IMG/VR virus record: IMGVR_UViG_3300031952_000006 | Length of the DNA: 64,000 bases | Reading direction: 5' to 3' (one strand) | Origin: a virus | Taxonomy: Duplodnaviria; Heunggongvirae; Uroviricota; Caudoviricetes | Part shown: positions 250 through 62,905 of the stretch, piece after piece | Layout of the letters: each line of letters begins with the position of its first letter | Position numbering within the stretch: the stretch's first letter is position 1 | Translations under genes and position numbers: made by a program | The notes under the pieces: model-generated | What the model saw: the letters and a program-made list of their open reading frames with translations, nothing else | Database searches by the model: none | Told to the model about the DNA's origin: nothing

Positions 250-282
250 TAAAAATAGATATTGGATAAGAAGGAGATAAAA

Positions 283-1005: not shown

Positions 1006-1043
1006 TCACCTCAAAATAAAAATCCAATTGGAGGGCATGATTA

Positions 1044-1802: not shown

Positions 1803-1815
1803 GGAGATTTCTTTT

Positions 1816-3038: not shown

Positions 3039-3042
3039 AAAT

Positions 3043-4742: not shown

Positions 4743-4766
4743 TAAATTATATACGAGTAAAAATAT

Positions 4767-7258: not shown

Positions 7259-7437
7259 TGATTGACGATTACTACTGTGAACATTGTAAAAAGATATTTG
7301 AATACAAAAAACCCTATGGTGAGGAAAAATTTCCAAATCACCCACAGTGTCCTGTGTGTAATACAAGAAAAACACGCAGAAAAATATCATTCAACGCTAT
7401 TATTCCAGATGATTTTAAATCTGTAAATAGTAGATAA
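7252..7437 (+). CDS. small zinc-ribbon protein
   Basis: CEHCKK...CPVCN. AGGAGG SD. Confidence 0.35.
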   Translation: MVMIDDYYCEHCKKIFEYKKPYGEEKFPNHPQCPVCNTRKTRRKISFNAIIPDDFKSVNSR

Positions 7438-7458
7438 AAACAAAACAAGGAGTATTTT

Positions 7459-8442: not shown

Positions 8443-8452
8443 GTATATTGAA

Positions 8453-9442
8453 ATGCTCACTAAAACAGTAAGTAACCCTGAAATTGCAGAGCGTCTGAAG
8501 AAAGATCCCTTTATCACTCTGTGGAAAAATAATTATGCAGAAAATCAAGCAAAGGGATACTTGTCTACCGAGAAGTCCCGTCCGCTACTGTTTATAAAAA
8601 ATACCAGACCGTATGCAAATTTACCAGTAGTCATTGTTGCTGCTGGACCTTCCTTGGATAAGAACATTCATCTCTTAAAAGAATATCAAAATAATTGCAT
8701 CATTCTTTGTGCGGATGTCATCCTCTTTAAATTACTACAGAACGAGATCAAACCGGATTTCGTTGTTAATATTGATCCGCATGAGTCTCTCAAAAAATTC
8801 TGGAATAATATTGATACTACAGAATTCACTCTGGCCTGTCCGACAACAACCAACCCTCGAACACTGGAAGCATGGAAAGGGCATGTCTATTTTTTCAATC
8901 AATCTGATCTTGATAAATCTCCAAAAGGAGAGGCGCTTAAGAAACTTATAAAACCAACAGAAGGGTGGGGTGTCCTTTCCAACAAATTCTTTGTTGGTGC
9001 GACAATGTTTCAGTTTTCTACCTATCTCAGTCCATCAGCTGTAATCTTAATTGGGCACGATTTTTGCTACACCGACGATAAGGCCTTCTGTGATGGTTTC
9101 CTTGATATAAAAATTCATCATGACGAGCATCCCATTGGATCAGAAGAACATAGATATATGATCGAAAAACTTAAAGCAGAAGAGATACATAGAGATGTCT
9201 CAATTAATCTTTCACCAACGGAGACCGTATGGACTTCTCAAACGCTACATCTTTATAAGAACACATTAGTAGGATTAATCAATACAGCTAAGTTGAAAGT
9301 TATTAATGCAACTGAAGGCGGAATTCTGACAGAAATAGAAAAAATGTCATTTAAAGATAGCCTCGAAAAATTCTGTCAAAATCCTATTACTAAGTTCGAT
9401 ACGTTCTCTATGCAAAAAAGAAAACACAAAAAGAGACGATAA
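8453..9442 (+). CDS. MptE/DUF115-like protein (core shared with Maf-type motility-accessory-factor glycan transferases)
   Basis: NLPVVIVAAGPSLDKN...CIILCADV pattern of the 6-hydroxymethylpterin-diphosphokinase-MptE-like/Maf core. Last gene of the sugar cluster. Confidence 0.5.
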   Translation: MLTKTVSNPEIAERLKKDPFITLWKNNYAENQAKGYLSTEKSRPLLFIKNTRPYANLPVVIVAAGPSLDKNIHLLKEYQNNCIILCADVILFKLLQNEIKPDFVVNIDPHESLKKFWNNIDTTEFTLACPTTTNPRTLEAWKGHVYFFNQSDLDKSPKGEALKKLIKPTEGWGVLSNKFFVGATMFQFSTYLSPSAVILIGHDFCYTDDKAFCDGFLDIKIHHDEHPIGSEEHRYMIEKLKAEEIHRDVSINLSPTETVWTSQTLHLYKNTLVGLINTAKLKVINATEGGILTEIEKMSFKDSLEKFCQNPITKFDTFSMQKRKHKKRR

Positions 9443-9536
9443 TCAACCTTAAAAATAGCACCTATCAAGTTATTTTTGATGTTAGCGACCTACCAAGTGT
9501 TCTTTAATCTGAAATTATTGCTATGAGAAAATATTA

Positions 9537-39449: not shown

Positions 39450-39524
39450 ATTATAGAATTTCTAGAAAAATGATTGACTTTTATTATATTTGTTATTATT
39501 GTTATAACATAACGAGACAATATT

Positions 39525-39685
39525 ATGAAAATGATAACAAGACATGATCTAAATCAAAGCTGCCTGTTCCCCTCAACAAAAGAGGGAAACCCAGCAGTAT
39601 ATTGGGAATTTGACATCTTCCGATGATGGAATACATAGTCTATGGAACCAGAAAAACGGAAGATGTCAAAATCTTCCGTTTTTTT
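39525..39685 (+). promoter_or_regulatory. attenuator-like leader: 33-codon uORF plus mutually exclusive antiterminator/terminator hairpins
   Basis: uORF 39525-39626 ends inside GACATCTTCCG (39612-22). That arm can pair with CGGAAGATGTC (39657-67). The same segment also forms the hairpin CGGAAGAT / ATCTTCCG (39657-64 / 39671-78) followed by T7. Confidence 0.35.
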
Positions 39686-39849
39686 ATGCATGGATGATCA
39701 AAATTTTATAATAGATATTCGTGATAGCATACTAACTCTTATATTTGTAGAAAAGCAAAATAATATAAAAATAAGAGATTTTATAAAAAATGCCCAAGTA
39801 GCTCAAATGGATAGAGCAATAGTTTTGTAAACTATAGGTTGTTAGATCA

Positions 39850-40020
39850 TACCTGACCTTGGGCTAAGAAGAAACAGCTTATTGTGCCTAGGGCACCCTC
39901 CATAAAACGGATGAATGTCTATCCATGCCGGACCGCACTATGAATAGACACCCATGAAACACTCACGTTTGAGGAGACACTGAGGCGATTTGGATTGGTC
40001 ATCCTTCTGCCCAAGAAAAT
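39850..40020 (+). ncRNA. ORF-free GC-elevated segment with long-range pairing; candidate structured RNA
   Basis: CTTGGGC(TA)AGAAG at ~39857-71 pairs with CTTCTGCCCAAG at ~40003-14, enclosing ~130 nt that contain the local hairpin GTGCC-TAG-GGCAC. There is no ORF on either strand in an otherwise gene-dense genome. Confidence 0.25.
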
Positions 40021-40103
40021 ATCAGTTAAGGGTGCTGCTGTTTTCTATTTTTAAAGATGTGTATTACTAAAAAAGATTCTATTTTATACTATCAGGAGTT
40101 CAC

Positions 40104-40454
40104 ATGAAAATTAATATCTGTATATTATTAATACTGGTTACCAGTATTTCTTGTTCATCCTTAGCTAAGCTGACAGTAACACCATCAGGAGCAACTATTG
40201 GTGAGAATCAATCGAAATCTTTTGTAGCCGAAGGTTTTGATAAAAAAGGAAAAAAAGTTAAGATAAATCCGGCATGGTCGGTCGATACTGGAGGAGAGGA
40301 CATAGGAACTTTAACACAGCAATCGAACACAGAAGCTACGTTTAGATCAAAAGACTTTGGGGTTGCTGTAATAACTGTTGAGGAAAAAAAGATAAAGGCA
40401 TCTGCAAAGCTTTTCATTGCAAAAAAGAAAGTACCTCACATGCCCCAGAAGTGA
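40104..40454 (+). CDS. Big_2-like (bacterial Ig-like) lipoprotein (116 aa)
   Basis: Signal peptide with lipobox-like LVTSISCSS, then a single Ig-like domain pattern (KLTVTPSGATIGENQSKSFVAEGFDKKGKKV...WSVDTGG). Confidence 0.5.
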   Translation: MKINICILLILVTSISCSSLAKLTVTPSGATIGENQSKSFVAEGFDKKGKKVKINPAWSVDTGGEDIGTLTQQSNTEATFRSKDFGVAVITVEEKKIKASAKLFIAKKKVPHMPQK

Positions 40455-40567
40455 GTATTTTATATAGGTATGAATTAGCCTTTAAATCGTTTACAGGAAT
40501 TACGCTATCAACTGCCTGGTTTAAATAAAGAGTAGATTTAAAAGATCCGGTGCTGTCGGATCTCTAT

Positions 40568-40645
40568 CGCGGGATAGACCAAATGGCTAGGTCGGGTGGC
40601 TCATAACCACTGTCATTTTTGGAGGTTCAAATCCTTCTCCCGCTA
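40568..40645 (+). tRNA. tRNA, anticodon CAU (Met or Ile2)
   Basis: Acceptor CGCGGGA / TCCCGCT (C1·U72 mismatch). D stem GACC/GGTC. Anticodon stem GGTGG/CCACT with loop CTCATAA. T arm GGAGG-TTCAAAT-CCTTC. Unusually long 9-nt variable loop. Confidence 0.5.
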
Positions 40646-40770
40646 ATAATGAAGTAGCAAGAGCGATAAGGGTTCTGCTACCTAATACTAGTTAAAGCTC
40701 CTTGAGTGTATTTCCTAGGTTTGCCTGGGCGTTAAACTCAAAAACGTAGTACGCTACTTTATTATAAAAC

Positions 40771-40910
40771 GCCGGAGTAGCCCAATGGTTGAGGCACTTT
40801 TATTTTGAAAAAGCTAAAAACTTTACAGTTGGCATTACTCGAATGATTCGTCATTCCATCTATGGTAACTTACAAGCAAACAAATCTGAGTTCGAATCTC
40901 GGCTCCGGCA
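40771..40910 (+). tRNA. tRNA-Lys(UUU)-like gene carrying a 72-nt structured insert at the variable-loop position
   Basis: Perfect 7-bp acceptor GCCGGAG / CTCCGGC. D arm. Anticodon arm CTTTT-ATTTTGA-AAAAG (U33, TTT, G37). T arm CTGAG-TTCGAAT-CTCGG. Insert 40814-40885 contains GAATGA-TTCG-TCATTC. Confidence 0.5.
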
Positions 40911-40935
40911 CTTTTTTAGATCAGTAAGGACTAAT

Positions 40936-41097
40936 GAAATATACGAAAAAGCAGCATCGTTGGACTAAAGAAGAAATAGAAGAACTCGAATCTTTAATTA
41001 TTACAAAAACTAATCCAGAGCTAGCTAACTATTTCGAGGTATTTCAAAAAGTTCGTAAGAGAGAAATAGATAAGATTAAGAAGGAAAAAAAGTAATG
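40936..41097 (+). CDS. Myb/SANT-like small protein (53 aa), paralogue of the N-terminal domain of the HNH gene at 44470
   Basis: KKQHRWTKEEIEELESLIITKTNPELANYF vs KKHHWTAEEIEKLKNLSHTKSNPEIAAYF. Confidence 0.35.
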
Positions 41098-41418
41098 TGG
41101 TATGTCAACCAAGCAGGAGAATCCTTTAAATTCAGGAATGTTCTTACAAAAAGAATATTTCAAACAGCAGCATATAGTAATTTTATAAATATTAACATAT
41201 TAGACAGCGATTCAACTATAATAAATATTAACAAAGAAAGAACTCTTGGAGTACCTATAGAGACACTGGCAACAAAGGAAGATGCAGATTTATTTGTTAT
41301 ATACATAACAATATGCTTTGCTCGAAAACGATCGATTTGCTCTTATGAGGCTTACGAAACATTTAGAAAAGAATATGAACACAAAGTTAATGGAGTAAAA
41401 ATAAAAAAATACGGATAA
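41095..41418 (+). CDS. hypothetical protein (107 aa)
   Basis: ORF. Confidence 0.4.
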   Translation: MWYVNQAGESFKFRNVLTKRIFQTAAYSNFININILDSDSTIININKERTLGVPIETLATKEDADLFVIYITICFARKRSICSYEAYETFRKEYEHKVNGVKIKKYG

Positions 41419-41427
41419 AGGAGAAAA

Positions 41428-41706
41428 ATGAAAAAGCTTGGTATGCATGAAGGTCCTGTACGAAAGGGCGGTATTAGTAACAATAATTCATCCAATAAAC
41501 CAGATATCGCACCAGCGGGCCAGGGTTTAACTATACCAAATGCGATAGCACAAATTGATAAAGATAAACCACTGCAAGTACTAGCACAAATAGATAATGC
41601 TATAGTAGCTCTATATGCAGGCGATAAAGGAAGTTCTATTTCAGCTCTTAAGAAAGCAAAAAATATTCTTAAAAATTTTTGTAACGATGGGGGACATTTT
41701 TGGTAG
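41428..41706 (+). CDS. hypothetical protein (92 aa)
   Basis: AAGGAGAAAAATG SD. Confidence 0.4.
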   Translation: MKKLGMHEGPVRKGGISNNNSSNKPDIAPAGQGLTIPNAIAQIDKDKPLQVLAQIDNAIVALYAGDKGSSISALKKAKNILKNFCNDGGHFW

Positions 41707-41773
41707 CTGTAACTCAGTGGTAGAGTCCTTGACTGTGGATCAAGTTACGTAAGTTCAATTCTCACCAGTTACC
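41702..41773 (+). tRNA. tRNA-His (GUG) with encoded G-1
   Basis: G-1 (41702) opposite C73. Acceptor GTAGCTG / CAGTTAC. D arm ACTC-AGTGGTA-GAGT. Anticodon arm CTTGA-CTGTGGA-TCAAG. Confidence 0.65.
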
Positions 41774-41808
41774 CAGTTTTTTAAAATTAAATGAAAGGAG
41801 ATACATGA

Positions 41809-42000
41809 ATGGATCTTAAAGAACTTAAAACAGACGCAACAAAAAAATTAAAGGAGATTGAGAAGAGTAAAAAAGCGCTTGATGCATTTCTTCTCAAAGT
41901 TGAAGAGATTAGAACTGCTCCAAAAGATAAGAAAGAGAAACTCACTGAAAAACTTGAAGCGTGGCTTGGTAAAGCAGGTATCGCTGAAATACTATCATAA
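41809..42000 (+). CDS. small coiled-coil protein (63 aa)
   Basis: AAGGAGATACATGAATG SD. Confidence 0.35.
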   Translation: MDLKELKTDATKKLKEIEKSKKALDAFLLKVEEIRTAPKDKKEKLTEKLEAWLGKAGIAEILS

Positions 42001-42026
42001 TAAAAATTCGCCATCCTTGTAGAGAG

Positions 42027-42401
42027 ATGGCGAATTATTCTATTTTTGTGGAGAATTTTATGTTAAAATATATGTTGTATGCACAAGCAGGCGAAGGTTG
42101 TGATTATACCATAGCCTGTGGAAAAGAAGTATACATGTTATCTTCTTCGTCCATAGAAGAAGCCAAAAAGGAGACAGAGAAATTCATAAAGGAAAATTTT
42201 AGTTCGGACGAACACAGATTGAAAAAAGCTATTATTTATGAAGTAACCAAAAAAGTGATACTCGATATTGAAAGTATATATAAAGTAATAACTGCTAAAA
42301 TTATAGAAAAGTCTCTGGATGAGATCGTTGAAAAAGAAAGAATGGAGTATGAACGCCTAAAAAGAAAATTTGAAAAACAATACAATACTGGGGCATGTTA
42401 A
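42027..42401 (+). CDS. hypothetical protein (124 aa)
   Basis: ORF. Confidence 0.4.
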   Translation: MANYSIFVENFMLKYMLYAQAGEGCDYTIACGKEVYMLSSSSIEEAKKETEKFIKENFSSDEHRLKKAIIYEVTKKVILDIESIYKVITAKIIEKSLDEIVEKERMEYERLKRKFEKQYNTGAC

Positions 42402-42679
42402 TAATGGCAACACAGGAAAAGATCGATCTCGTGTGTAACAATTTTGCAAAATTTTTAAAAGAAAAGAATAAACGCTATGGAGATTCCGCAATAGCTCCTA
42501 TGCGAATTTTTTCTAAAAGTGAGGCAGGAAATCAGATATGCAATAGGCTTGATGACAAACTTAGCCGCATAAAGAATAGTACTGAATTGAAGAAGAATGA
42601 TTGTTCAGATATTTTGGGATACATGGTTCTTCTTATGATTGAAAAAGATTGGACAGAATTTGATGATTTATTGGATTAG
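42395..42679 (+). CDS. hypothetical protein (94 aa)
   Basis: ORF. Confidence 0.35.
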   Translation: MLIMATQEKIDLVCNNFAKFLKEKNKRYGDSAIAPMRIFSKSEAGNQICNRLDDKLSRIKNSTELKKNDCSDILGYMVLLMIEKDWTEFDDLLD

Positions 42680-42866
42680 TATAGTATGGCAATTAAGTTA
42701 TTATCAGACTGCAGGAAATGTAGTTTTTACAAAGAATTGGCCTATGGCAGCCTAGTTATATGTTCTCAATTGAAAGATATTGGTGCTCTCATAATCTCCC
42801 AACCCAGTCACGATAATCCTGGATTTTCGAATGGAACTATGATTGTTCTTTGCAGGAAGGATTGAT

Positions 42867-43139
42867 ATGCAAAAATGTCCTATTTGTGGAACTTCTCTTA
42901 TTGGAAGGGATTATTATGAAGAAATGCATCTAAGTGAGGCTTACTGGAGATGTTCTCACGATCATTATTGGTATGAATTTTCATACGGAACAACTATTGT
43001 TACTATAGGAACAAAGGTATTATCAGAATATTACAGTGATTCAGATAAGAAAAAAACAGAATTCAGACGTGATTGCGAAAAAGCAGTTTTTCAGTATCAG
43101 CAAAGATATAAATCTGACTTAGTCGCATTACTTGTATGA
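42867..43139 (+). CDS. zinc-ribbon protein
   Basis: MQKCPICG...CSHDH. GGAAGGATTGATATG SD favours ATG 42867. Confidence 0.4.
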   Translation: MQKCPICGTSLIGRDYYEEMHLSEAYWRCSHDHYWYEFSYGTTIVTIGTKVLSEYYSDSDKKKTEFRRDCEKAVFQYQQRYKSDLVALLV

Positions 43140-43149
43140 GAAGTATATA

Positions 43150-43329
43150 TGGAAAAAGATGAACTTAAGGTGATAGGTAATTTAATAGACGTTTCATACT
43201 TTTTACTTAGCGTTCTTACAAACCAACTCAAGGCTCAGCATGGTTCCAATATAACTATAATTGGTTTGGATGAAGCTCATAAAAATATTGATGATGCGCG
43301 AGAATGGTATTTTAAAAAGGATATTTAAA
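43150..43329 (+). CDS. hypothetical protein (59 aa, below ORF-track cutoff)
   Basis: ORF MEKDELKVIGNLIDVSYFLL.... Confidence 0.3.
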
Positions 43330-43527
43330 ATGAATGAATTTGTACAATATATACGAGAAGGAATATTTATGTTTTGCGGATCAGTAGTTGTAGCAGCAGT
43401 GCTGTCAGGATTCTACACGATATTTTTTAAAAAAATACCTATGCTTTTTAAAAAGAATCAAAAATCTCCTATAGAAAAAACGGATATTCAGGATTTGGAT
43501 GGAGATATATATGCAACAGAGGATTAA
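43330..43527 (+). CDS. small membrane protein
   Basis: MNEFVQYIREGIFMFCGSVVVAAVLSGFYTIFF with one TM helix. The ORF-track start 43261 overlaps the upstream ORF. Confidence 0.35.
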   Translation: MNEFVQYIREGIFMFCGSVVVAAVLSGFYTIFFKKIPMLFKKNQKSPIEKTDIQDLDGDIYATED

Positions 43528-43690
43528 TTATTTTATAGCAAACAAAGACGTTCCTATAGGAAATATTGAGTATGTAACAAAAGATATGAATGCTCAATTA
43601 GAAAAATTGAATTTATCCCTTGATAAGATAATTTCTATTATCGAAAGAGATAGTTACTTTATCGTATTTTACAAGGATTACACAGAATGA
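43499..43690 (+). CDS. hypothetical protein (63 aa)
   Basis: ORF. Confidence 0.3.
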   Translation: MEIYMQQRINYFIANKDVPIGNIEYVTKDMNAQLEKLNLSLDKIISIIERDSYFIVFYKDYTE

Positions 43691-43920
43691 TACGAATAAC
43701 TGTAGAGTTAATTCCTTTTGGAATAAAAGGTCTTAAAAGAAATATTGGTGAGATAGTTATTATAAATAGCATTGATCATCCAAAACGTCCCGAATATGGA
43801 AACTATGAAGTTACGATAAAAGATATAGGAAAAGATATTATAAAGGAACTGACGATAACAAACCATAAAAGAAAAGAGGGAGTCTGGGTATTACTTAAAA
43901 AAATTTTAGAGAATATCTGA
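43687..43920 (+). CDS. hypothetical protein (77 aa)
   Basis: ORF, ATGA-coupled. Confidence 0.35.
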   Translation: MIRITVELIPFGIKGLKRNIGEIVIINSIDHPKRPEYGNYEVTIKDIGKDIIKELTITNHKRKEGVWVLLKKILENI

Positions 43921-43986
43921 AAATAATCTTGACAGTTCTGAGACATAGTATATATGACATACATATTAAATAAATTATAATTATTA

Positions 43987-44163
43987 TGGATAATATGAAA
44001 GAACAAGGACAAGATCAAGTTACCTTCTCTATAGGTTGCCCTTCAAAAGATAAAAGAGATTCGCTGCGAAAATTGATACGGAAAATAGCAGCAAATGAGG
44101 ATGTTAAGAATTTTGATATAATCTATAAAGCCATTGCGCTTTATAGTAAACAAATTAAATGAA
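43987..44163 (+). CDS. small hypothetical protein (58 aa), possibly RHH-like
   Basis: ORF downstream of TTGACA (43929-34) + TATATG promoter-like element. QVTFSIGCPSKDKRDSLRKLIRK. Confidence 0.3.
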
Positions 44164-44200
44164 AATTATTCAGTGACACGCCACCTGCGTCATGCTTACA

Positions 44201-44276
44201 AGCAAAATAGCTCAGTTGGTAGAGCAGAAGTCTCATACACTTTAGGTCGTCAGTTCAATTCTGACATTTGCATCCA
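44201..44276 (+). tRNA. tRNA, anticodon CAU (Met or Ile2), CCA encoded
   Basis: D arm GCTC-AGTTGGTA-GAGC. Anticodon arm GAAGT-CTCATAC-ACTTT. T arm GTCAG-TTCAATT-CTGAC. Acceptor pairs at 2-6 only (A1·A72 and A7·A66 mismatches). CCA at 44274-76. Confidence 0.55.
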
Positions 44277-44319
44277 AAATAGCATATGCTACTCGCGTGT
44301 CTTTGAATGGTTTATATAT

Positions 44320-44456
44320 GGGGAAGTAGCTCAGTAGTAGAGCAACTTACGGCAAAATAAGTGTTAAAACTTTTTAATTACTGTTACTCACGCAGTTCGC
44401 TGCGTCACATTCAGTAATTTACAAGCAATGCAGTGGTGCAACTCCACTCTTCCCCA
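44320..44456 (+). ncRNA. non-canonical tRNA-like gene with ~70-nt structured insert (homologous to the insert in 40771..40910)
   Basis: Perfect acceptor GGGGAAG / CTTCCCC. Canonical D arm GCTC-AGTAGTA-GAGC. Stem ACTTA/TAAGT with an 8-nt loop CGGCAAAA (no U33). T stem AGTGG/CCACT with atypical loop TGCAACT. Insert 44363-44430 has AATTACTG...ACGCAG-TTCG-CTGCGT...CAGTAATT. Confidence 0.4.
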
Positions 44457-44469
44457 AAATACATAACAT

Positions 44470-44994
44470 ATGTATAGTATGAAAAAACATCACTGGACAG
44501 CAGAAGAAATAGAAAAGTTAAAAAACCTTTCTCATACAAAATCCAACCCAGAGATAGCTGCATACTTTGGTATTACACCAAAAGCAGCTGAAAGAGCAAT
44601 GGCTAGGTATGGTATAAAAAGAGATAAGAAATTAATAAGTAAAATATTAAGTAATACTGGTAAAAAGAATCATGAGAAATATAATTATTTTGGAGAGAAT
44701 AATCCATTTTGGAAAGGGGGCATAAGCAAAAATAAGTACCATTATAAAAAATTGCAAATGCAGTGATATCCAGAAAGAGTAAAAGCGCGTAGGCTTGTTT
44801 ATATTGAAATAAAAGCAGGTAGATTAAAAAGAGGAAAGTGTGAGATTTGTAAAAAACTAAATGCCGAAGCGCACCATAATGATTACTCAAAACCATTAGA
44901 AATAAGGTGGTTCTGTAAAAAACACCATAGAGAGTATCATAATACTTTATGTATTTTAATTCTTTTCTCTTTCATACTTATTTCAATGAAATAA
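44470..44994 (+). pseudogene. HNH homing endonuclease (Myb-like N-domain + HNH C-domain) interrupted by a single in-frame TGA at 44764-66
   Basis: Same frame before and after the stop: ...KKLQMQ * YPERVKARRLVYIEIKAGRLKRGKCEICKKLNAEAHHNDYSKPLEIRWFCKKHHREYH (HNH motif). Sits inside the tRNA cluster. Confidence 0.5.
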
Positions 44995-45032
44995 TTATCA
45001 AAGAATAAAGGATTCCATCAGAGAATAGTTAC

Positions 45033-45104
45033 AAGCTTATTGTGCAATTGGTAGCACACCAGTTTTTAGGACCGGCAGTGGGAGTTCAAGTCTCTCTAAG
45101 TTTA
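45033..45104 (+). tRNA. tRNA with anticodon UUA (ochre/amber-suppressor-like), embedded in a stem-flanked unit 45010-45135
   Basis: Acceptor AAGCTTA / TAAGTTT. D arm GTGC-AATTGGTA-GCAC. Anticodon stem CCAGT/ACCGG (one A·C mismatch) with loop TTTTAGG (U33, TTA, G37). T arm GGGAG-TTCAAGT-CTCTC. 5' flank GGATTC...GAGAATAG pairs with 3' flank CTATTATC...GAATCC, then T6. Confidence 0.45.
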
Positions 45105-45144
45105 CACATACTATTATCAACTCGAATCCTTTTTTCAGTCATAA

Positions 45145-45447
45145 ATGGAGGTTCTTATGACACGCAGACAAAATGAAATAGCTCCTGTAGTAATCACACC
45201 ACTTAATGTAAGCGACGACATTCGCAACAAAATCTTTGTTACGATTGATGGCCGCGACTGGCAAAAAGATCTGTCAGAGCTTGGTCTCACCTTTGACTCT
45301 TCAGAGCGTGATATAATGTCACGTCTTACTCCGCTAATCCAGGAAGAGTTTAACCAAGACATCAGCGATACGTATAAGATTCGCAAGGCAATCAATAGTC
45401 AAAATATCTATGTTATTCCGAACAGTACTGCAGGAATTGTCCTGTAG
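45145..45447 (+). CDS. hypothetical protein (100 aa)
   Basis: AATGGAGG SD. Lies between the two stem-flanked RNA units. Confidence 0.45.
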   Translation: MEVLMTRRQNEIAPVVITPLNVSDDIRNKIFVTIDGRDWQKDLSELGLTFDSSERDIMSRLTPLIQEEFNQDISDTYKIRKAINSQNIYVIPNSTAGIVL

Positions 45448-45617
45448 CTGTTTATAAGCAGCGCCTCCATCAGAGTAGAGCTACAAGCAAATTTTCCAAG
45501 TTCGAATCTTGGAATCGCCGCAGGGCGATTTGGCCGATTGGATAAGGCAAAAGACTTGAAATCTTTGATATAGCACAAACGCTCTACTCAACTCGAGGCA
45601 CTGCTTATACACAGCTA
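45445..45617 (+). ncRNA. Y-RNA-like element: long bipartite closing stem plus circularly permuted tRNA-like module, immediately upstream of Ro60 gene
   Basis: The 21-nt arms 45445-65 and 45597-617 are complementary with 2 mismatches. A second helix AGAGTAGAGC / GCTCTACTC follows. The enclosed hairpins run in the order T-arm (CCAAG-TTCGAAT-CTTGG), acceptor-like (AATCGCC-GCAG-GGCGATT), D-like (GCC-GATTGGATAA-GGC), anticodon-like (AAAGA-CTTGAAA-TCTTT). Ends 14 nt before the Ro60 start codon. Confidence 0.5.
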
Positions 45618-45631
45618 TAAGGAGAATTATT

Positions 45632-47233
45632 ATGCAAGAACCAACACTATCCTATCTCTCTAATGAAGATCGTCTGAAAGCCTACAATGCCATCGTTGGA
45701 GGGTGCGAACACGTATACTCAAAAGGAAAACTACAGCATGAGAAACTTGCTGGAGTACTTAGCATATTCATTCAGCTTGCAGAGCATGATCCATACTTTC
45801 TTGCTCACTTTGCTTCATATGCTGTTAAGAACCTTGAAAGTAAAGACTTGAAGGTCATAGCTGCATTTGCAAACTCACTGTCTGATGCAGATGGTACTCC
45901 CTTCATCACCGGAAAGGATGCTCAAGGAAAACCTATCTATAGTCCGACATACAAGAAACCAAATCTTCGGTTGGTGTCACAAGCTGCTGTTCAGGAGTTC
46001 GATCCTAAGCTGGTGAATCGTATTATCGAAATTGCCAACTTAAAGCAATCGATCGGAACCAGAAGAGAGGCAACACACTTTGCCAATTCTTTAAAAACCG
46101 CTATCAAGAAATGGGTACGCTTTCGTGAACAAAATCCGAAGGCTCTTGAAGGTATGAAGAAATCAGGTTTCGCACCAACCTTCAAAAACATTTACCGGAT
46201 GATGCACATGAAACCAAGCCAGGAAGCTGCAGAGATTCTCGGTTGGAGACAGGGCAGCACAAAGAAAGGAAACGTTGAGAAGATTGAAAAAAGAAATCTC
46301 ATAGATTTCAAAGGGCTTACTGACATTCAAATTGCTCAGAAAATTCGTGATGAGAAGATCCCAGTCTTAGGCGCTATGGGAGCTCTACCTTCTAAGATAT
46401 CTCCCGTCATTGCTGCAGCTGTCCTTGAGCAAGCATCAGGAAACCAAGCAGTCATTCTCAGAAATCTGTTTGATAGTCAGGGTCTGCTTAAAGATAAAGA
46501 AGTAATGAGGGTCTTCACTGAAAAGATTCAGACTGCCAAAACAGCACTGGATAGGGTTGAAAAACTCAACACCGAAGTCGATGAAGAAGTTCAAAAAGTT
46601 CTGAAGACAGCTAAAGCTGATAAGCGTAAAAAGGATGTCGGAAATGTTGGACGTGCCTATATCCATATTGACATCAGCGGCAGCATGACCGGTGCTATCG
46701 AATTCGCCAAGAACAATGGTGCAATCATTGCTGAGTGTATTGAGAATCCTGCAGAGAACTTCTTCTGGGGAGCATTCAATACCAATGGATATTCTTTGTC
46801 TAAACCGGCATCATTTGAAAAAGATGCATTCATGGCTTCTCTGTATGGTCTCAATGCTGGTGGCGGAACAAACTGCCTTGCTTGCTACAGCGATGCTCGA
46901 AAGAACAACTGTGATATTGATATCTACATCACCGACCAAGAGCATATGGGAGAGCCTATTGACCAGCTCATTCTTAAATATGATGCGCAGGGATTCTCCC
47001 GGCCAAAAGCTGTCGTCGTTGTTGACTTTTCGAATGGAAGAAGCAATGGATCTTTTAAAGATCATCTTGAAAGAGTAGGGATTCCTGTTTCTGTTATAAA
47101 ACCGCAAGCACTGACAGAAAGTGCGCTGGTCTCTCAGGCAATTAAGACTGCTTTGAAGGGAGCTACTGCAGTTATTGATGAAATCATGAATACCCCGTTA
47201 CTCAAACTTCCAGCATACTGGGAAGCAGTGTAA
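45632..47233 (+). CDS. rsr: Ro60/Rsr orthologue (TROVE-like helical N-terminal region + C-terminal vWA domain)
   Basis: 533 aa. N-terminal ~340 aa helical repeats. C-terminal vWA with MIDAS DISGSM...T...ITDQE. Co-located with the Y-RNA-like element. AAGGAGA SD. Confidence 0.6.
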   Translation: MQEPTLSYLSNEDRLKAYNAIVGGCEHVYSKGKLQHEKLAGVLSIFIQLAEHDPYFLAHFASYAVKNLESKDLKVIAAFANSLSDADGTPFITGKDAQGKPIYSPTYKKPNLRLVSQAAVQEFDPKLVNRIIEIANLKQSIGTRREATHFANSLKTAIKKWVRFREQNPKALEGMKKSGFAPTFKNIYRMMHMKPSQEAAEILGWRQGSTKKGNVEKIEKRNLIDFKGLTDIQIAQKIRDEKIPVLGAMGALPSKISPVIAAAVLEQASGNQAVILRNLFDSQGLLKDKEVMRVFTEKIQTAKTALDRVEKLNTEVDEEVQKVLKTAKADKRKKDVGNVGRAYIHIDISGSMTGAIEFAKNNGAIIAECIENPAENFFWGAFNTNGYSLSKPASFEKDAFMASLYGLNAGGGTNCLACYSDARKNNCDIDIYITDQEHMGEPIDQLILKYDAQGFSRPKAVVVVDFSNGRSNGSFKDHLERVGIPVSVIKPQALTESALVSQAIKTALKGATAVIDEIMNTPLLKLPAYWEAV

Positions 47234-52780: not shown

Positions 52781-53908
52781 ATGTCAGAATATTATAACAA
52801 AATACATTTTGAAACATATGAAGAATCATCAAAGATGATACATGCATACGTGCAACTTCCTATGATACCCTTCTACGAAATTATCGATACTCTCAATGAA
52901 CAATTAAAGAGTAAGTATACAGCATTTCCGTATGACAGTGCATGCAGCGCTTATGCAGAACATGTATTTGATAAACTCAAAAAGCATACAAGTGCTGCTA
53001 AAGGTGGTATTAATGAACTACGTTCCCGTTTTTGGGATATCTATATGCCTTATATGTTTTACAAATCAGGTAAGAAAGTATTCAGACCAACAAAAGAATT
53101 GGTACACATGCTGGTTGATACCGAATTAAAGAATCTTGATGCTTTTTTTGTGCAATCACCATTCAAATGCATTTTCATTGCAATACCATCCGAAGTAAAA
53201 CTAATGAATCCGTTCAATCTACCAATTGATGGATTATACATAGCAGTATTTAACAAAGATGAGATACACTTCGATGGATTCTCTGAAGAATTTCAAAAGT
53301 ATGAAAAATATAAAAATAGTAAAAATGTTGTTATCTGTGCCGTCAGTGATATTGTACTACCTTTAGATGATCCTCGAGAGACAATGTATTATTGGAACAT
53401 AGCATTACGTGACGGTGATTTATTTGAACAAATAGATGTCATACTTGAAAGGTATGATAAAGAATATCAAAAGAAAGAATATGATTACTGCAACAAAGCC
53501 TATGATAGAACATTTCTAGAAAACATTTTATCGTTTTCAATTAATACGCTACTATATATCAACTCAAAAGACCCAAAAGAATTTGGGATCACTCCTATTA
53601 AAAAGGCAAACGTACAAAATTTAAAAAACAAAGCAAAAATACGAAAAGCCCAAAAGAAAACTCAAATACCGTATTATACCATAGGTCAAAACATTACTAT
53701 TGATCACTCATATAAGAATGTCATAAAAATGTATGAACCTGAGTTATCTCATCAGAGAAAGCTTTCAGGTAAATGGATTGTTCGGGGTCACTGGCGTAGT
53801 CAAGCCCACGGAAAAGAATTCAAAGAAAGAAAGATTATCTGGATTCAGCCATATGCCAAAGGGGAGGAGTTTGCAGAAATTATTGAGAAAGAATACGTAG
53901 TAAAATAA
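52781..53908 (+). CDS. hypothetical protein (375 aa)
   Basis: ORF. Confidence 0.4.
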   Translation: MSEYYNKIHFETYEESSKMIHAYVQLPMIPFYEIIDTLNEQLKSKYTAFPYDSACSAYAEHVFDKLKKHTSAAKGGINELRSRFWDIYMPYMFYKSGKKVFRPTKELVHMLVDTELKNLDAFFVQSPFKCIFIAIPSEVKLMNPFNLPIDGLYIAVFNKDEIHFDGFSEEFQKYEKYKNSKNVVICAVSDIVLPLDDPRETMYYWNIALRDGDLFEQIDVILERYDKEYQKKEYDYCNKAYDRTFLENILSFSINTLLYINSKDPKEFGITPIKKANVQNLKNKAKIRKAQKKTQIPYYTIGQNITIDHSYKNVIKMYEPELSHQRKLSGKWIVRGHWRSQAHGKEFKERKIIWIQPYAKGEEFAEIIEKEYVVK

Positions 53909-60849: not shown

Positions 60850-61742
60850 TGGGTGGAGGATCGTATTCAGTATCTAACGCAACTGCAAGTGTTGAAGCAA
60901 GCTATACGACTATGGATGTAAAAACTGGTCGTAGGATGTTTAGATCAAAGGAAGAAATATTCACACAGAAATCTATCAACAATGCAATGAATCCTTATGG
61001 AATCGTCGTTCGAGAATCCCGAGATTCTAAGGAACATCCAAATTCCTTAGCTATCGTTATCGCTCTGGATGTTACCGGATCAATGGGATCGGTTCCTCAT
61101 CACCTCATTACTACAGGTCTTCCTACTCTTATGGGAGAGATTCTTGAGAAGGGAATCAAAGATCCCCAGGTTCTCTTTATGGGAATAGGAGACCATGAGT
61201 GCGATCAATCACCCCTGCAGGTAGCTCAGTTTGAGTCCAGCGACGACCTTCTGGATAAATGGCTCAAGGATGTCTATCTCGAAGGTGGTGGTGGGGCAAA
61301 CTATGGGGAATCATATCATCTCGCGTGGTACTTGGCTGGATATCATACGGCTATTGACTGTTTCGAAAAAAGAGGTGAGAAAGGATTTCTCTTTACCATA
61401 GGAGATGAACCAGTTCTTAAAAAAATATCAAAAAGCAAAGTAAAGGATATTATGGGTGATGGTCAGTATGAAGATTTTACGCACGATGCCCTTTTAAAAA
61501 AAGCTATGGAGAAGTACAATGTGTACCATCTTCATATTAAAGAAACCGCAGCTGGAAGTCGAAAAGAAGTTATCGATGGATGGAAACAAATTCTTCACGA
61601 TAATCTCATTGTCGTTGAGAATCATAGTGAATTGGCAACAACCATTGCTGACATTATAATCAAAAACGCTGCTACAAAACCAGAACAGAAAGTTGATGTT
61701 AAAATAGATATTAAGATTGAGAAACCTGAAATAATTCTATGA
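60849..61742 (+). CDS. von Willebrand factor A (vWA) domain protein
   Basis: MIDAS VIALDVTGSMGS. 297 aa. Overlaps the downstream PurA-like gene by 4 nt. Confidence 0.55.
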   Translation: MGGGSYSVSNATASVEASYTTMDVKTGRRMFRSKEEIFTQKSINNAMNPYGIVVRESRDSKEHPNSLAIVIALDVTGSMGSVPHHLITTGLPTLMGEILEKGIKDPQVLFMGIGDHECDQSPLQVAQFESSDDLLDKWLKDVYLEGGGGANYGESYHLAWYLAGYHTAIDCFEKRGEKGFLFTIGDEPVLKKISKSKVKDIMGDGQYEDFTHDALLKKAMEKYNVYHLHIKETAAGSRKEVIDGWKQILHDNLIVVENHSELATTIADIIIKNAATKPEQKVDVKIDIKIEKPEIIL

Positions 61743-62905
61743 AAAAGAAGAAACTGTTGGCTGTAATCGGCTTGTTATATGGCGACGAAGGAAAGGGACT
61801 CACAGTCGATTACCTTTGCTCACAAAATCCTAACTCGCTTGTCATTCGTTACTCAGGCGGCCCTCAGGCAGGGCATACCGTGTGCTATAATGGCATGCGG
61901 CATGTCTTTGCTAGTTTTGGATCAGGAACATTTAGAAAAGCTCCAACGTACATTTCTAAATATTGTGTTATTGATCCTATCGCTATTTTAAATGAATACA
62001 CTATATTATTAAAGAAAGATCTTTCGCCTGTTCTTTACATTGATATACGCTGTCCGGTAATAACCCCTTATGATTCTTTTCATAGTGGGACAGATAAGCA
62101 GTTTAAAGAGAACGGAACCTGCGGGGTTGGCATTGGTTCTACGTATCAGCGAGAACAGGATTTTTATTCTTTAACATTTCTCGATTTGTTTTACCCGTCT
62201 GTGTTGAAAATAAAACTTGAGAACATTAGAAAATATTACAAAGGTAGAAAAGATTTTGATTTAACACTGTTTTTAAAAGGATGTTCTTTTCTTACAGATA
62301 CGTTGAATTCTGCCTACTTCATTAAAAGAGCATACGGAATACCAAATATAAAATGTTCTACGTATATATTCGAAGGATCACAGGGGCTTCTTCTGGATCA
62401 AAACATAGGATTCTTCCCGCATGTTACACGAGGAAATACGGGGAGCAAGAATATTATAGAATTGTGTGGAACAGAGGATATTGAATTCTACCTTGTTACG
62501 AGAGCATATCAAACTCGTCATGGAAATGGTCCGATGACAAATGAAAACATATCTCATAATATACAAATCAATCCAGATGAGACAAATAGAAACCATCCTC
62601 ATCAAGGTGTTTTTAGAAGATCACTTTTAGATCTCAACTTGATTCATTATGGGATAAGTAAAGATTCTGTTATCTGTCATGCAAAGAAAAAAACTCTGGT
62701 TATTACATGCTTGGATCATATTAAAAATTCAAAGGTGTTATTTGAAGATATGTATAGATTTGTAGCCGCAGATTCTGTTTGTCGAAGTTATAATGAAAAT
62801 GAATTTATTGGAAAGATATCTAAAATACTGGATATACCTGACGTTCTCGCAAGTTCATCAGATGAGTCTAAAAATATGAAGAAACTACATTTTAAGGGAG
62901 ATTGA
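61739..62905 (+). CDS. adenylosuccinate-synthetase-family enzyme (PurA-like, PurZ candidate), 388 aa
   Basis: P-loop GDEGKG, GGPQAGHT, FEGSQGLLLDQNIGFFPHVTRGNT, YQTRHGNGP. These motifs align with E. coli PurA GDEGKGK / GGHNAGHT / [24 protein letters not shown] / YSTRVGAGP. About 40 aa shorter than cellular PurA. Confidence 0.7.
   Translation: MKKKKLLAVIGLLYGDEGKGLTVDYLCSQNPNSLVIRYSGGPQAGHTVCYNGMRHVFASFGSGTFRKAPTYISKYCVIDPIAILNEYTILLKKDLSPVLYIDIRCPVITPYDSFHSGTDKQFKENGTCGVGIGSTYQREQDFYSLTFLDLFYPSVLKIKLENIRKYYKGRKDFDLTLFLKGCSFLTDTLNSAYFIKRAYGIPNIKCSTYIFEGSQGLLLDQNIGFFPHVTRGNTGSKNIIELCGTEDIEFYLVTRAYQTRHGNGPMTNENISHNIQINPDETNRNHPHQGVFRRSLLDLNLIHYGISKDSVICHAKKKTLVITCLDHIKNSKVLFEDMYRFVAADSVCRSYNENEFIGKISKILDIPDVLASSSDESKNMKKLHFKGD

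Follow-up and report, generated by a model that had tools for sequence, protein, structure and literature searches.

A tRNA-Lys-shaped phage gene carries a conserved RNA arm, putatively of Y RNA type, near a distant Ro60 homolog

The 64,000-nucleotide stretch of tailed-phage DNA analysed here (the window; IMG/VR record IMGVR_UViG_3300031952_000006, Caudoviricetes) contains a tRNA-Lys(UUU)-shaped gene that is interrupted between its anticodon and T arms, which raises the question of what the inserted segment is and what kind of RNA the gene produces. The canonical parts listed in an initial annotation of the locus are all present: a perfect 7-bp acceptor stem (GCCGGAG 40771-40777 and CTCCGGC 40903-40909, followed by A73 at 40910), a D arm (GCCC...AGGC), an anticodon arm (CTTTT-ATTTTGA-AAAAG, 40797-40813) with U33, G37 and the TTT anticodon at 40804-40806, and a T arm (CTGAG-TTCGAAT-CTCGG, 40886-40902). 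As that annotation also claimed, 72 nt separate the anticodon stem from the T stem, and they include a hairpin (GAATGA-TTCG-TCATTC at its tip, ~60-70 nt in all) that is followed by TTACAAGCAA. The covariance-model search proposed there as a check returned an Rfam tRNA match to exactly this gene (39.6 bits, gathering score 29; E=7e-5 over the whole window), with the surplus nucleotides falling in the variable region; the cloverleaf, comprising the 7-bp acceptor and the D, anticodon and T arms, is above the curated RF00005 threshold. Gene order is that of a normal tRNA, not permuted, and the acceptor ends are free. ARAGORN made no tRNA call on the gene as encoded, and called a 75-nt tRNA-Lys(ttt) in 45 of 54 variants from which the insert had been removed in silico.

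The variable region exceeds the limits of both class I (4-5 nt) and class II (~21 nt) tRNAs, and the initial annotation was right to set aside both a class II variable arm and a canonical intron at position 37/38. Two other types of intron were considered and rejected: a group I intron (no Rfam match; the insert is 60-70 nt long and lies in the variable region, not at least 200 nt in the anticodon loop), and a bulge-helix-bulge (BHB) intron, for which inspection found no staggered 3-nt bulges.

The insert alone folds better than 199 of 200 shuffled sequences (z=-2.8) and carries a structured element, here termed E, of which the window holds five copies (Table 1). The lower stem of E (X'/X) is 7-9 bp long and varies freely in sequence; it leads into an internal loop of ~5x5 nt, whose 5' strand reads an invariant ACU and then Y-G/A-A, and from there into an upper stem (H1). 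An invariant ACAAGC directly follows the lower stem on its 3' side. Pairing holds in 90% of cells across 19 copies of the insert type, compared with 60% in shuffles (0 of 500 reached the observed value) and 37-44% when partner strands were slid out of register, and all 15 pairs show double compensatory changes. RNAalifold independently predicts the same structure, and 12 cells are G-U, which points to the + strand RNA as the folded molecule. E is a real structured RNA, specific to this phage clade. Over 487 kb of Ro60-seeded loci, the element-family covariance model (CM R1) gave 37 + strand matches and none on the other strand (E<=0.1; 20 above 40 bits), and its maximum was 24.5 bits in a control of 678 kb of unrelated viral DNA; the insert of the tRNA-Lys-shaped gene scores 72.2 bits (E=1.6e-13), a value that is partly circular because this copy is a member of the training set. 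E is absent from RNA family databases, and degenerate-pattern scans of IMG/VR returned 75 + 8 loci, all of them chance matches in coding sequence that were reused solely as negative controls.

Table 1. Coordinates of E-bearing genes, their parts and the Ro60-like gene in the window.
Feature	Position	Strand	Evidence or details
tRNA-Lys(UUU)-shaped gene, E between anticodon and T arms	40771-40910	+	Rfam RF00005, ARAGORN, sequence
E, capped (insert) form, in the same gene	40817-40880	+	CM R1, covariation (alignment A2), fold
A-rich 5' flank of this E	40817-40827		AAAACTTTACA; A40827 pairs with T40870 (outermost X pair)
Lower stem of this E	40828-40835; 40862-40869		X' GTTGGCAT; X ATGGTAAC
Loop strands of this E	40836-40840; 40857-40861		T-ACTC; CATCT
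H1 of this E	40841-40846; 40851-40856		GAATGA/TCATTC, TTCG loop
3' motif of this E	40871-40877		TACAAGC
Complete tRNA-Met(CAU) (44201-44276) in E leader/trailer stem	44175-44301	+	H1 7 bp, X 5 bp
tRNA-Met(CAU) unit, leader	44175-44203		H1 GACACGC 44175-44181, CACCT, X 44187-44195, TACAAGC 44197-44203
tRNA-Met(CAU) unit, trailer	to 44301		U73-CCA-AAATA, X' GCATATGC 44282-44289, ACTC 44291-44294, H1 GCGTGTC 44295-44301
Second tRNA-shaped gene with capped E insert, same design as 40771-40910	44320-44456	+	Rfam tRNA 40.6 bits
E parts of second gene	44377-44426		X' 44377-44383, ACTC 44386-44389, H1 ACGCAG/CTGCGT (TTCG loop), X 44412-44418, TACAAGC 44420-44426
Complete suppressor tRNA (anticodon UUA; 45033-45105) in E leader/trailer stem	45008-45131	+	H1 9 bp, X 6 bp
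Suppressor unit, leader	45008-45036		AAGGATTC 45008-45015, CATCAGAG, X AATAGT 45024-45029, TACAAGC 45030-45036
Suppressor unit, trailer	45110-45131		X' ACTATT 45110-45115, ACTC 45120-45123, GAATCCTT 45124-45131
YrlA-like RNA, circularly permuted, sealed acceptor	45445-45617	+	Fold, ARAGORN, acceptor table, synteny
Its tRNA-like module			T arm CCAAG-TTCGAAT-CTTGG; acceptor AATCGCC/GGCGATT, 7 bp, sealed by GCAG loop
Module, remainder			D arm; anticodon arm AAAGA-CTTGAAA-TCTTT
Its closing stem			~30-bp leader/trailer with E motifs: CCTC-CATCAG-X-TACAAGC ... X'-CAACTC-GAGG
Distant Ro60 homolog, 533 aa	45632-47233	+	TROVE ring and vWA domain (DxSxS); structure prediction, phmmer

In the second insert-type gene the anticodon loop is 8 nt long (CGGCAAAA) and the T loop, TGCAACT, is atypical; the E of this gene scores 65.9 bits with CM R1 and folds with z=-4.6, and once E is deleted ARAGORN gives a 4-base anticodon, 'gcaa'. 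Both insert-type genes are followed by small ORFs, paralogous to one another and weakly HNH / D5-like. The YrlA-like unit lies on the upstream side of the Ro60-like gene, with a gap of ~15 nt, and its fold is strongly stable (MFE -71.1 kcal/mol, compared with -38.9 in shuffles; z=-8.2). Here ARAGORN detects a tRNA only after the halves are rejoined; it misses 2 of 7 tRNA-model matches in the window, and every permuted unit. Syntenic copies of the YrlA-like unit occur 145-166 nt upstream of the Ro60 gene in contigs L086, L088, L091 and L097.

Comparison with related phages, as the initial annotation had suggested, yielded ~65 E copies across 25 contigs, all on one strand and in three topologies: a capped form within tRNAs of normal order (V loop or D loop), a leader/trailer stem enclosing circularly permuted tRNAs, and a leader/trailer stem enclosing complete tRNAs. 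Up to nine or more units occur per locus. The 21 permuted units in the window and relatives encode the 3' half upstream of the 5' half, and each contains a 7-bp acceptor (21/21); several encode N73-CCA, and ARAGORN detects a tRNA in them only with the halves rejoined. In these units the E stem would hold both pieces together. The complete canonical tRNAs enclosed by E include Met, suppressor, Ile and Arg, among others. Payload-less, stand-alone E hairpins were also found (L097 at 3436, L117 at 7291). The five window copies, the permuted and leader/trailer versions and the Ro60-like gene all lay beyond the view of the initial annotation. A literature search for permuted or arm-bearing phage tRNAs found none, and the DNA of the window's tRNA region had no match among deposited phages.

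A repeated palindromic unit with conserved ends and cassette-like payloads could also be a feature of the DNA itself, either a mobile or recombination element resembling integron attC that leaves pseudogenes behind, or a promoter or terminator; the weak HNH / D5-like similarity of the small ORFs would fit this explanation. We regard this as the least credible of the explanations considered. Every E copy lies on one strand, and the tolerated G-U cells would be C-A mismatches on the opposite strand. The tRNA halves are intact and covary (e.g., the T stem is GACG/CGTC in L093 and CTGG/CCAG in L094). Moreover, X pairs with X' across the payload in permuted units, which indicates structure at the RNA level and argues against a promoter or terminator. 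That version was rejected, since sigma-70-like promoter sites occur at shuffle level and terminator-like sites (9, compared with 4.3 +/- 2.4) do not fall on E arms.

The neighbouring protein-coding gene offers a candidate partner. Its product had no match in Pfam or PHROG, a single-sequence search of IMG/VR found no relatives, and phmmer against the PDB matched Ro60 (9nen_A, E=3.7e-4). An AF2 model (pLDDT 80) was compared with the PDB by Foldseek, and the best 12 matches were all Ro60/TROVE proteins over the full length (E=1e-9 to 3e-6), including the Ro60 of phage phiLo. The homology is shown by structure, because a profile of the protein family found no match among PDB sequences. Hence, the modelled product has a Ro60 fold, and it is the presumed protein partner of E. 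In 185,000 cellular genomes the family was absent save for one 9-kb MAG contig, and the hosts and viruses of the E-bearing clade appear to be bacterial in type.

E lies within 2.5 kb of the Ro60-like gene in 60 of 65 cases (median 998 nt; 29% of the available flank is that close), a count drawn from loci that were all seeded on the Ro60-like protein, so that E without Ro60 could not appear in it. In L098, E is found only on the six units adjoining the Ro60-like gene, and ~25 other tRNAs carry none. Known Y RNAs follow a similar rule, being encoded no more than 4 kb from Ro60 and on its strand (PMC4201824). The tRNA-Lys-shaped gene, on the same strand and 4.7 kb upstream of the Ro60-like gene, is just outside that distance. 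Against an association with Ro60, one distant Ro60-like gene, in phage Rctr197k, stands beside a 31-tRNA array that lacks E.

Self-cleaving ribozymes occur beside phage tRNAs, as the HDV-like 'theta' ribozymes illustrate, and E might belong to an undescribed class of small ribozymes that process the tRNA arrays by self-cleavage, with or without ligation. Its invariant nucleotides do cluster in unpaired positions (the ACU loop and the ACAAGC junction) while the helices around them covary freely. Known ribozymes were rejected for E on the lack of any Rfam match, which held for ribozyme families even at E<=1-10. The element has ~9 invariant positions in a simple two-helix fold with no sign of a tertiary core or pseudoknot, and self-cleavage would leave the tight linkage to the Ro60 gene unexplained. 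We therefore consider a ribozyme very improbable.

An arm shared by normal, permuted and sealed tRNA-like genes beside a viral Ro60 is likely to represent a new form of Y RNA. We thus favour the reading that E is a putative arm of Y RNA type which binds Ro60 and persists in the mature RNA, and that the tRNA-Lys-shaped gene is a non-permuted relative of YrlA (probability roughly 0.55). The reading draws on E itself (structure, conservation, covariation and three topologies), on its proximity to the Ro60-like gene and on the Ro60 fold modelled for the protein. The gene would yield a tRNA-shaped RNA of ~140 nt with E as a structured arm of ~60 nt in the variable loop; the phage's own Ro60 homolog would recognise the arm, which would stay in place, and the mature product would be a tRNA mimic joined to a Ro60-binding stem, akin to bacterial YrlA. 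Relatives would encode the same final shape, a tRNA body with E at the variable or D-loop position, in two ways: with a capped arm and free acceptor ends, as here, or as a permuted gene whose arm is open at the tip and whose acceptor is sealed by a loop or joined by a spacer. Such a spacer could be opened by RNase P and 3' trimming, as in M. smegmatis YrlA. By analogy with Y RNAs, the complex would serve as a tether or gate between Ro60 and exonucleases such as PNPase or factors that bind tRNA.

Ro60 ligands are reported to have two stems separated by an internal bulge, whose 5' strand holds a CGAA-type motif (PMC12135203); E read as a hairpin has this layout, which supports the Ro60-arm reading. 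On the 5' strand, window copy 1 reads ACU-CGAA-UG and copy 2 ACUCACG; the CGAA-like motif is not conserved in E, for which the consensus is ACU-Y-R-R with ACU alone invariant, and this counts against the reading. A resemblance between ACUUGA of E and CUUGAC on the 3' strand of metazoan Y RNAs was dropped, as the pairing register does not fit. The sealed-acceptor permuted unit next to the Ro60-like gene has the architecture of YrlA (10.1101/312249). In addition, E inserts were found on the V side (13 cases) and in the D loop or D arm (6 cases), and at no other tRNA position. Such confinement to the two length-variable regions of a tRNA is predicted by a retained arm.

The initial annotation offered three options for the insert, namely a new intervening element, a tRNA-derived regulatory RNA or a processing-intermediate design. 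The regulatory RNA is the one we favour, because the inserted module is conserved, shows covariation, is linked to the Ro60 homolog nearby and has the stem, internal-loop and stem layout of Y RNAs. The intervening element stays a live rival, and the main one, because E also brackets complete tRNAs, where its removal is required. In such a scheme, an endonuclease (host RNase III, RNase E or a phage enzyme) would recognise the two-helix stem and cut at the base of E, near the UACAA-GC boundary, and in the A-rich 5' flank. Complete tRNAs would be released directly, whereas a ligase, host RtcB for instance, would have to join the cut pieces of insert-type and permuted transcripts into ordinary ~75-nt tRNAs. 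Bacterial viruses would then have a counterpart of the archaeal BHB introns and permuted tRNA genes, and Ro60 might chaperone or time the step.

Several observations suit such removal. The contexts of E are those of archaeal BHB motifs (non-canonical tRNA sites, permuted tRNAs and complete RNAs), deletion of E restores a standard 75-nt tRNA-Lys(UUU), and H1, loop and X together would make up roughly two turns of helix, as long as an RNase III substrate. In the complete-tRNA units, the 5' end of the tRNA overlaps the invariant ACAAGC and the trailer reads N73-CCA-AAAU; E must be cut off there for the tRNA to function, and thus marks a processing site. However, the tRNA may begin with AAGC, AGC or GC, so that its 5' end lies at no fixed distance from ACAAGC; this variation points to RNase P, and not to cleavage guided by E, as the source of mature 5' ends. 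Inspection of the junction showed a symmetric internal loop and no bulge-helix-bulge, and splicing would not require inserts to be limited to V and D loops. The 'empty' E hairpins and sealed-acceptor units hold no releasable tRNA. Among ~45 window ORFs scanned (36 of the 40 that reach 150 aa, together with several small ones near the tRNA cluster; ~24 kb of the phage genome and the host lie outside the window), no gene for an RNA ligase, splicing endonuclease or RNase III was found. We know of no bacterial tRNA splicing pathway of a kind that would excise E. Overall, excision of E is possible, if on the unlikely side.

Whether the genes decode bears on a further alternative, in which arm-bearing and permuted genes alike are working tRNAs. 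Host RNase P, 3' trimming and CCA addition would turn them into E-clamped, aminoacylatable tRNAs of one or two pieces, and the role of the viral Ro60 would be to regulate how available they are or to shield them, e.g., from host anticodon nucleases or exonucleases. The anticodon loop of the tRNA-Lys-shaped gene is fully canonical, and this tRNA could be a decoder, which speaks against the Y-RNA-type reading. Among syntenic orthologs, however, the CU...AA loop frame persists as the 'anticodon' itself drifts (tga, tga, aca, ata, atg). An A34 outside ACG is present in 9 of the ~35 units of permuted or insert type, compared with 0 of 14 complete tRNAs. Together, these patterns suggest that many permuted or insert units do not decode, and we consider a general role as working tRNAs improbable.

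Conservation of Y RNAs and Ro60 reaches from bacteria to humans, in whom Ro60 is a major autoantigen in lupus and Sjögren's syndrome. The locus bears on the origin of bacterial Y RNAs and the reason for their tRNA mimicry, in that one phage clade shows the same arm, within ~2 kb of a viral Ro60 gene, around complete tRNAs, in the V or D loop of tRNAs, on permuted bodies (with spacer and encoded CCA) and on sealed-acceptor, YrlA-like bodies. The derivation of YrlA from tRNA transcripts and the action of Ro60 on real tRNAs thereby become directly testable. The locus matters for annotation too: standard tRNA finders miss the E-bearing genes, Pfam the Ro60 homolog and RNA family databases E. If the permuted genes give functional tRNAs, permuted or split tRNA genes would extend beyond archaea and algae; if the arm-bearing genes work as tRNAs, these would be the first such genes in viruses of bacteria, and the series from a tRNA in a Y stem, through a permuted form with a spacer, to a sealed acceptor would document the origin of YrlA-type Y RNAs from tRNAs.

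Among known systems, YrlA (RF02553; PMC4201824; 10.1101/312249) shares with these units a tRNA-like module joined to a terminal stem with a conserved internal-loop motif, as well as a position on the same strand beside a Ro60 gene in several copies per locus. A tRNA-like domain with T and D arms is present in both the tRNA-Lys-shaped gene and the YrlA-like unit; the latter and many relatives also have the permuted order of T arm, acceptor and D arm, and, as in M. smegmatis, RNase P could open the 7-bp acceptor, which would have a CCA end. The tRNA-Lys-shaped gene differs in being non-permuted with free acceptor ends (YrlA is permuted, with a closed acceptor-like stem-loop and a Ro60-binding stem built from its 5' and 3' ends, an arrangement seen here in the unit next to the Ro60-like gene) and in having a complete anticodon arm, its E arm leaving from the variable region, whereas YrlA lacks an anticodon loop and its Ro60 module leaves from the anticodon-stem position. 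The YrlA motif GNCGAAN0-1G does not hold for E (copy 1, CUCGAAUG, agrees at 7 of 8 positions). RF02553 scores were 0-32 bits, below the gathering score of 69, with permuted units of L098 and L110 at 27-32 bits; in the window the model matched neither 39500-45500 (E<=1) nor 45400-45660 (E<=10). Further differences are a Ro60 partner too divergent for Pfam and the number of units per locus, which reaches nine or more.

Hairpin Y RNAs (YrlB of S. Typhimurium and M. smegmatis, and Yrl1/Yrl2 of Thermus phage phiLo; PMC12135203) resemble capped E in their ~60-nt stem, internal loop and stem, in a (C/U)GAA-type motif on the 5' strand at the boundary of loop and helix, and in a location upstream of a phage Ro60 gene. 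E, a putative ligand only, differs in being grafted into a tRNA body or split around one, and its invariant nucleotides (ACU, ACAAGC) are not those of phiLo. The BHB motif of archaeal and algal non-canonical introns and permuted or split tRNA genes (PMC4090602) is likewise a single motif found inside tRNAs, around permuted genes (3' half upstream of 5' half) and around complete RNAs. However, E is sequence-specific and has no bulge(3)-helix(4)-bulge(3), its junction being CUU/AAG with a symmetric ~4x4 loop and the X helix; it breaks the tRNA at the V or D loop, not at 37/38, and EndA and RtcB were not found among the scanned window ORFs. Class II tRNAs (Leu, Ser, Tyr, Sec) have an additional helix between the anticodon and T arms, but theirs is ~13-21 nt and unconserved across isoacceptors, whereas E measures ~60 nt, comprises two helices along with invariant motifs, and is found in D loops and enclosing entire tRNAs as well. 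Bacteria already provide one case of a permuted tRNA-like gene whose product matures, with no ligation, into two paired pieces with a CCA end, namely the two-piece tmRNA of circularly permuted ssrA; beta_tmRNA matches the permuted E units weakly (21-23 bits, threshold 84), and these units differ from it in having neither an mRNA-like domain nor an SmpB context.

The gene at 40771-40910 was described in the initial annotation as tRNA-Lys(UUU)-like with a structured insertion, and the parts claimed for it can all be read from its sequence: a perfect 7-bp acceptor stem (GCCGGAG/CTCCGGC) with A73, a D arm, an anticodon arm (CTTTT-ATTTTGA-AAAAG; anticodon UUU, with U33 and G37), a T arm (CTGAG-TTCGAAT-CTCGG) and, separating the anticodon and T stems, an insert of ~72 nt that contains the hairpin GAATGA-TTCG-TCATTC and ends with TTACAAGCAA. 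The covariance-model check suggested there returned an Rfam tRNA match to exactly these positions (39.6 bits, above the gathering score), with the extra nucleotides assigned to the variable region. ARAGORN, which gave five ordinary tRNAs in the window, did not call this gene; when the conserved part of the insert (element E, defined below) was deleted in silico, a canonical tRNA-Lys(UUU) resulted. The insert-bearing, tRNA-shaped gene is confirmed and is no chance match. A second overlong tRNA was found at 44320-44456 (40.6 bits with the Rfam tRNA model). The two inserts have AAAACTTT, ACTC, a TTCG-capped hairpin and TTACAAGCAA in common, and compensatory changes distinguish both stems between them. 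The second gene has an 8-nt anticodon loop (CGGCAAAA; read by ARAGORN as the 4-base anticodon 'gcaa'), an atypical T loop (TGCAACT) and a D loop without GG, and is either a non-decoding mimic or possibly a frameshift-type tRNA. One small ORF lies within ~25 nt 3' of each insert-type gene (40934-41095 and 44470-44766). These ORFs are paralogs (47% identity, E = 3e-15) with a common motif, H-x-W-T-x-E-E-I-E; in PHROG, they weakly resemble D5-like regulators and HNH endonucleases. Arm-bearing tRNA and small ORF together look like a duplicated module.

No DNA-level relative of the window was found among deposited phages and first motif scans of IMG/VR gave chance matches only, so related loci were sought via the neighboring 533-aa protein, which has >300 metagenomic homologs (52 divergent loci were taken; 36%–95% identity). 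Around tRNA sequences in these loci, a block '...GTTCC-N-TACAAGC' and a partner 'ACTTGAA' recurred. In a clean alignment of 19 insert-type copies, ACT and ACAAGC are invariant and all between is variable. The structure inferred on this alignment, here termed E, comprises a lower stem (X'/X, 9 bp), a 5x5 internal loop with ACU, an upper stem (H1, 6 bp) and a 3' ACAAGC. Paired cells amount to 90% on this structure versus 60% when shuffled (0/500 reach 90%) and fall to 37%–44% with the 3' partners slid; double compensatory changes were present in 15/15 pairs, and RNAalifold independently gave the identical structure. A covariance model of E scored the two window insert copies at 72 and 66 bits (both are training sequences) and yielded 37 matches in 487 kb of related loci, all on the plus strand and some outside the training set, against a maximum of 24.5 bits in unrelated viral DNA (678 kb). 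E is a real, conserved and previously undescribed RNA module, no description of which was found in the literature searched.

Segmentation of three related loci (L098, L110 and L126) and a census revealed three forms of E: capped within a normal-order tRNA, as at 40771-40910, or as a leader/trailer stem round either a circularly permuted or a complete tRNA. From capped units, ARAGORN called tRNAs after in silico deletion of E, which is inserted on the variable-loop side (13 cases) or in the D loop or D arm (6 cases). Permuted units run in the order T arm, acceptor 3' strand, loop or spacer, acceptor 5' strand, D arm, anticodon arm; ARAGORN is blank on them as encoded and calls a tRNA once the halves are rejoined, and their 7-bp acceptor stem is complementary inside each unit, not across neighboring units. 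Leader and trailer pair over a mean of 9.7 consecutive bp in H1 (5.2 in non-partner controls) and 7.5 bp in X/X' (4.6 in controls) across 39 verified units. In the comparison with related phages, also proposed in the initial annotation, the tRNA body GCCGGAG...CTCCGGC was of insert type in the window, its L093/L094 orthologs likewise, and its L098 ortholog permuted, with an identical break position throughout. RNase P and 3' processing would give permuted units the RNA shape of the insert type: E would project as an arm from the variable position of a tRNA body, and the two would differ solely in whether the arm tip is open or capped.

The five copies of element E in the window.
Form of E	RNA enclosed	Position	tRNA itself
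Insert type		40817-40880	
Insert type		44366-44429	
Leader/trailer stem	tRNA-Met	44175-44301	
Leader/trailer stem	UUA suppressor tRNA	45008-45131	45033-45105
E copy with permuted module	tRNA-like, acceptor sealed	45445-45617	

In the sealed-acceptor unit, the 7-bp acceptor is closed by a GCAG loop and the closing stem is ~30 bp; its fold has an MFE of -71.1 versus -38.9 kcal/mol for shuffles (z = -8.2). The UUA anticodon of the suppressor tRNA would read UAA; the window ORFs nevertheless look intact in the standard bacterial code, and L098 also has a permuted UUA unit (7067). Weak Rfam beta_tmRNA matches on permuted units of L098 (6435-6495 and 7078-7137) arise because beta-tmRNA, circularly permuted and two-piece, has the order T arm, acceptor, 5' strand in common with them. 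E leader/trailer stems free of any payload (L097 3436-3477, L117 7291-7326 and L109 13153-13220) enclose 18–50 nt with nothing tRNA-like; as long hairpins that stand alone, they recall YrlB-type Y RNAs.

The 533-aa protein (ORF 45632-47233) had no Pfam or PHROG match; its sequence weakly matched human Ro60 (E = 3.7e-4), which was not reproduced with the family profile. The assignment was settled by an AlphaFold2 model (pLDDT 80), from which the ORF is predicted to encode a Ro60 homolog: each of the best 12 PDB matches, Thermus phage phiLo Ro60 among them, was a Ro60/TROVE structure with a full-length alignment (E = 1e-9 to 3e-6), and vWA domains came lower down the list. Members of the family are all but missing from 185,000 cellular species genomes. 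A relative with 25.6% identity lies directly 3' of a 31-tRNA array in the deposited phage Rctr197k, where E is absent from the locus. The sole annotation of this region (KX853510.1, Virus Rctr197k, 7671-9620) is a misc_feature ('similar to conserved hypothetical protein'), and it may therefore be disrupted or mis-annotated; sub-threshold Rfam YrlA matches occur in the array where adjacent tRNAs join. In L126 (Ga0209692_10000011), a Ro60-like gene and E-flanked tRNAs are on a 949,039-bp contig. We know of no phage genome as large as 949 kb, hence this contig could come from a phage of extreme size or from a cellular genome, or be misassembled.

Every E copy has the same strand as the Ro60-like gene. 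In loci that were themselves reached through Ro60-like protein homologs, 60 of 65 copies lie ≤2.5 kb from the gene (median 998 nt), a zone making up only 29% of the sampled flank. Within L098, E is restricted to six units adjoining the Ro60-like gene, and ~25 further tRNAs of the same array are without it. The sealed-acceptor permuted unit sits 145–166 nt 5' of the gene in the window, L086, L088, L091 and L097.

We consider E to be a putative Ro60-binding arm that is kept in the RNA (probability roughly 0.55). Retention is suggested by insert sites that occur only in those two loops of the tRNA fold whose length varies, by the existence of E hairpins without a tRNA payload, and because the E stem would hold both pieces of permuted units together. 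The units also depart from decoding tRNAs in ways that argue for retention: 'anticodons' of syntenic orthologs drift (tga, tga, aca, ata, atg) within a conserved CU...AA frame; among permuted or insert units, 9 of ~35 have A34 in an anticodon other than ACG, versus 0 of 14 complete tRNAs; and 44320-44456 has its 8-nt anticodon loop and atypical T loop. Excision of E, or a role in processing, is an unlikely though not negligible alternative. Ordinary tRNAs are also enclosed by E and must be freed from it, their 5' ends are overlapped by ACAAGC, several have N73-CCA-AAAU trailers, and deletion of E restores tRNA-Lys(UUU) at 40771-40910. However, a BHB motif is absent, and ACAAGC lies at varying distances from the first tRNA nucleotide, which speaks for RNase P and against a cut guided by E; the scanned window ORFs gave no ligase or splicing endonuclease, consistent with a retained arm. 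Only a small share of the probability falls to a ribozyme or DNA-level element, and the remainder is given to no particular reading.

Other genes in the window include an adenylosuccinate-synthetase homolog (61739-62905) matching a phage PurZ-type PHROG and an HD-domain protein (29121-29795), which together hint at a 2-aminoadenine (Z-base) genome. A run of sugar-modification genes (262-9442) encodes TylF/CmcI-type methyltransferases, a glycosyltransferase, a PglD-like acetyltransferase, a DegT aminotransferase, an asparagine-synthase-like amidotransferase, epimerases and an MptE-like protein; such phage cargo is unusual and suggests that glycans or nucleotide sugars are modified. The product of 52781-53908 is a possible anti-CRISPR, as precomputed Pfam annotation labels the identical ORF in L076 AcrVA2-like; adjoining it are a Lar-like restriction-alleviation protein and an HNH endonuclease.

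The graded series from tRNA to YrlA-like RNA should interest Y RNA, Ro60 and tRNA researchers, and E-bearing units make it conceivable that tRNAs of bacterial viruses can be permuted or two-piece. The YrlA RNAs of bacteria and phages have been described as tRNA mimics in circularly permuted order with a closed acceptor stem and without an anticodon loop, whose 5' end pairs with the 3' end in a Ro60-binding stem with a GNCGAAN0-1G motif, and whose genes lie on the same strand as Ro60 within ~4 kb (PMC4201824; 10.1101/312249). The YrlA of Mycobacterium smegmatis, whose acceptor stem measures 7 bp, is cleaved by RNase P and acquires CCA, and both halves remain bound to Rsr after the cut (PMC4201824; 10.1101/312249). 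The gene at 40771-40910 departs from YrlA in three defining features, being unpermuted, with an open acceptor and an anticodon loop. The phiLo Ro60 binds hairpins laid out as stem, CGAA bulge and stem (PMC12135203), a layout that E has when read as a hairpin (copy 1, ACU-CGAA-UG); the CGAA-type motif, however, is not conserved across E copies. The Rfam YrlA model had no match in the window and gave 27–32 bits on permuted relatives, compared with a gathering score of 69. Since layout and context agree, the motif is unconserved and the Rfam score is sub-threshold, E-bearing RNAs would, judged by their architecture and context, act in the manner of YrlA, outside the curated family, and probably represent tRNA-mimicking Y RNAs of a new topology from a clade of uncultured phages.
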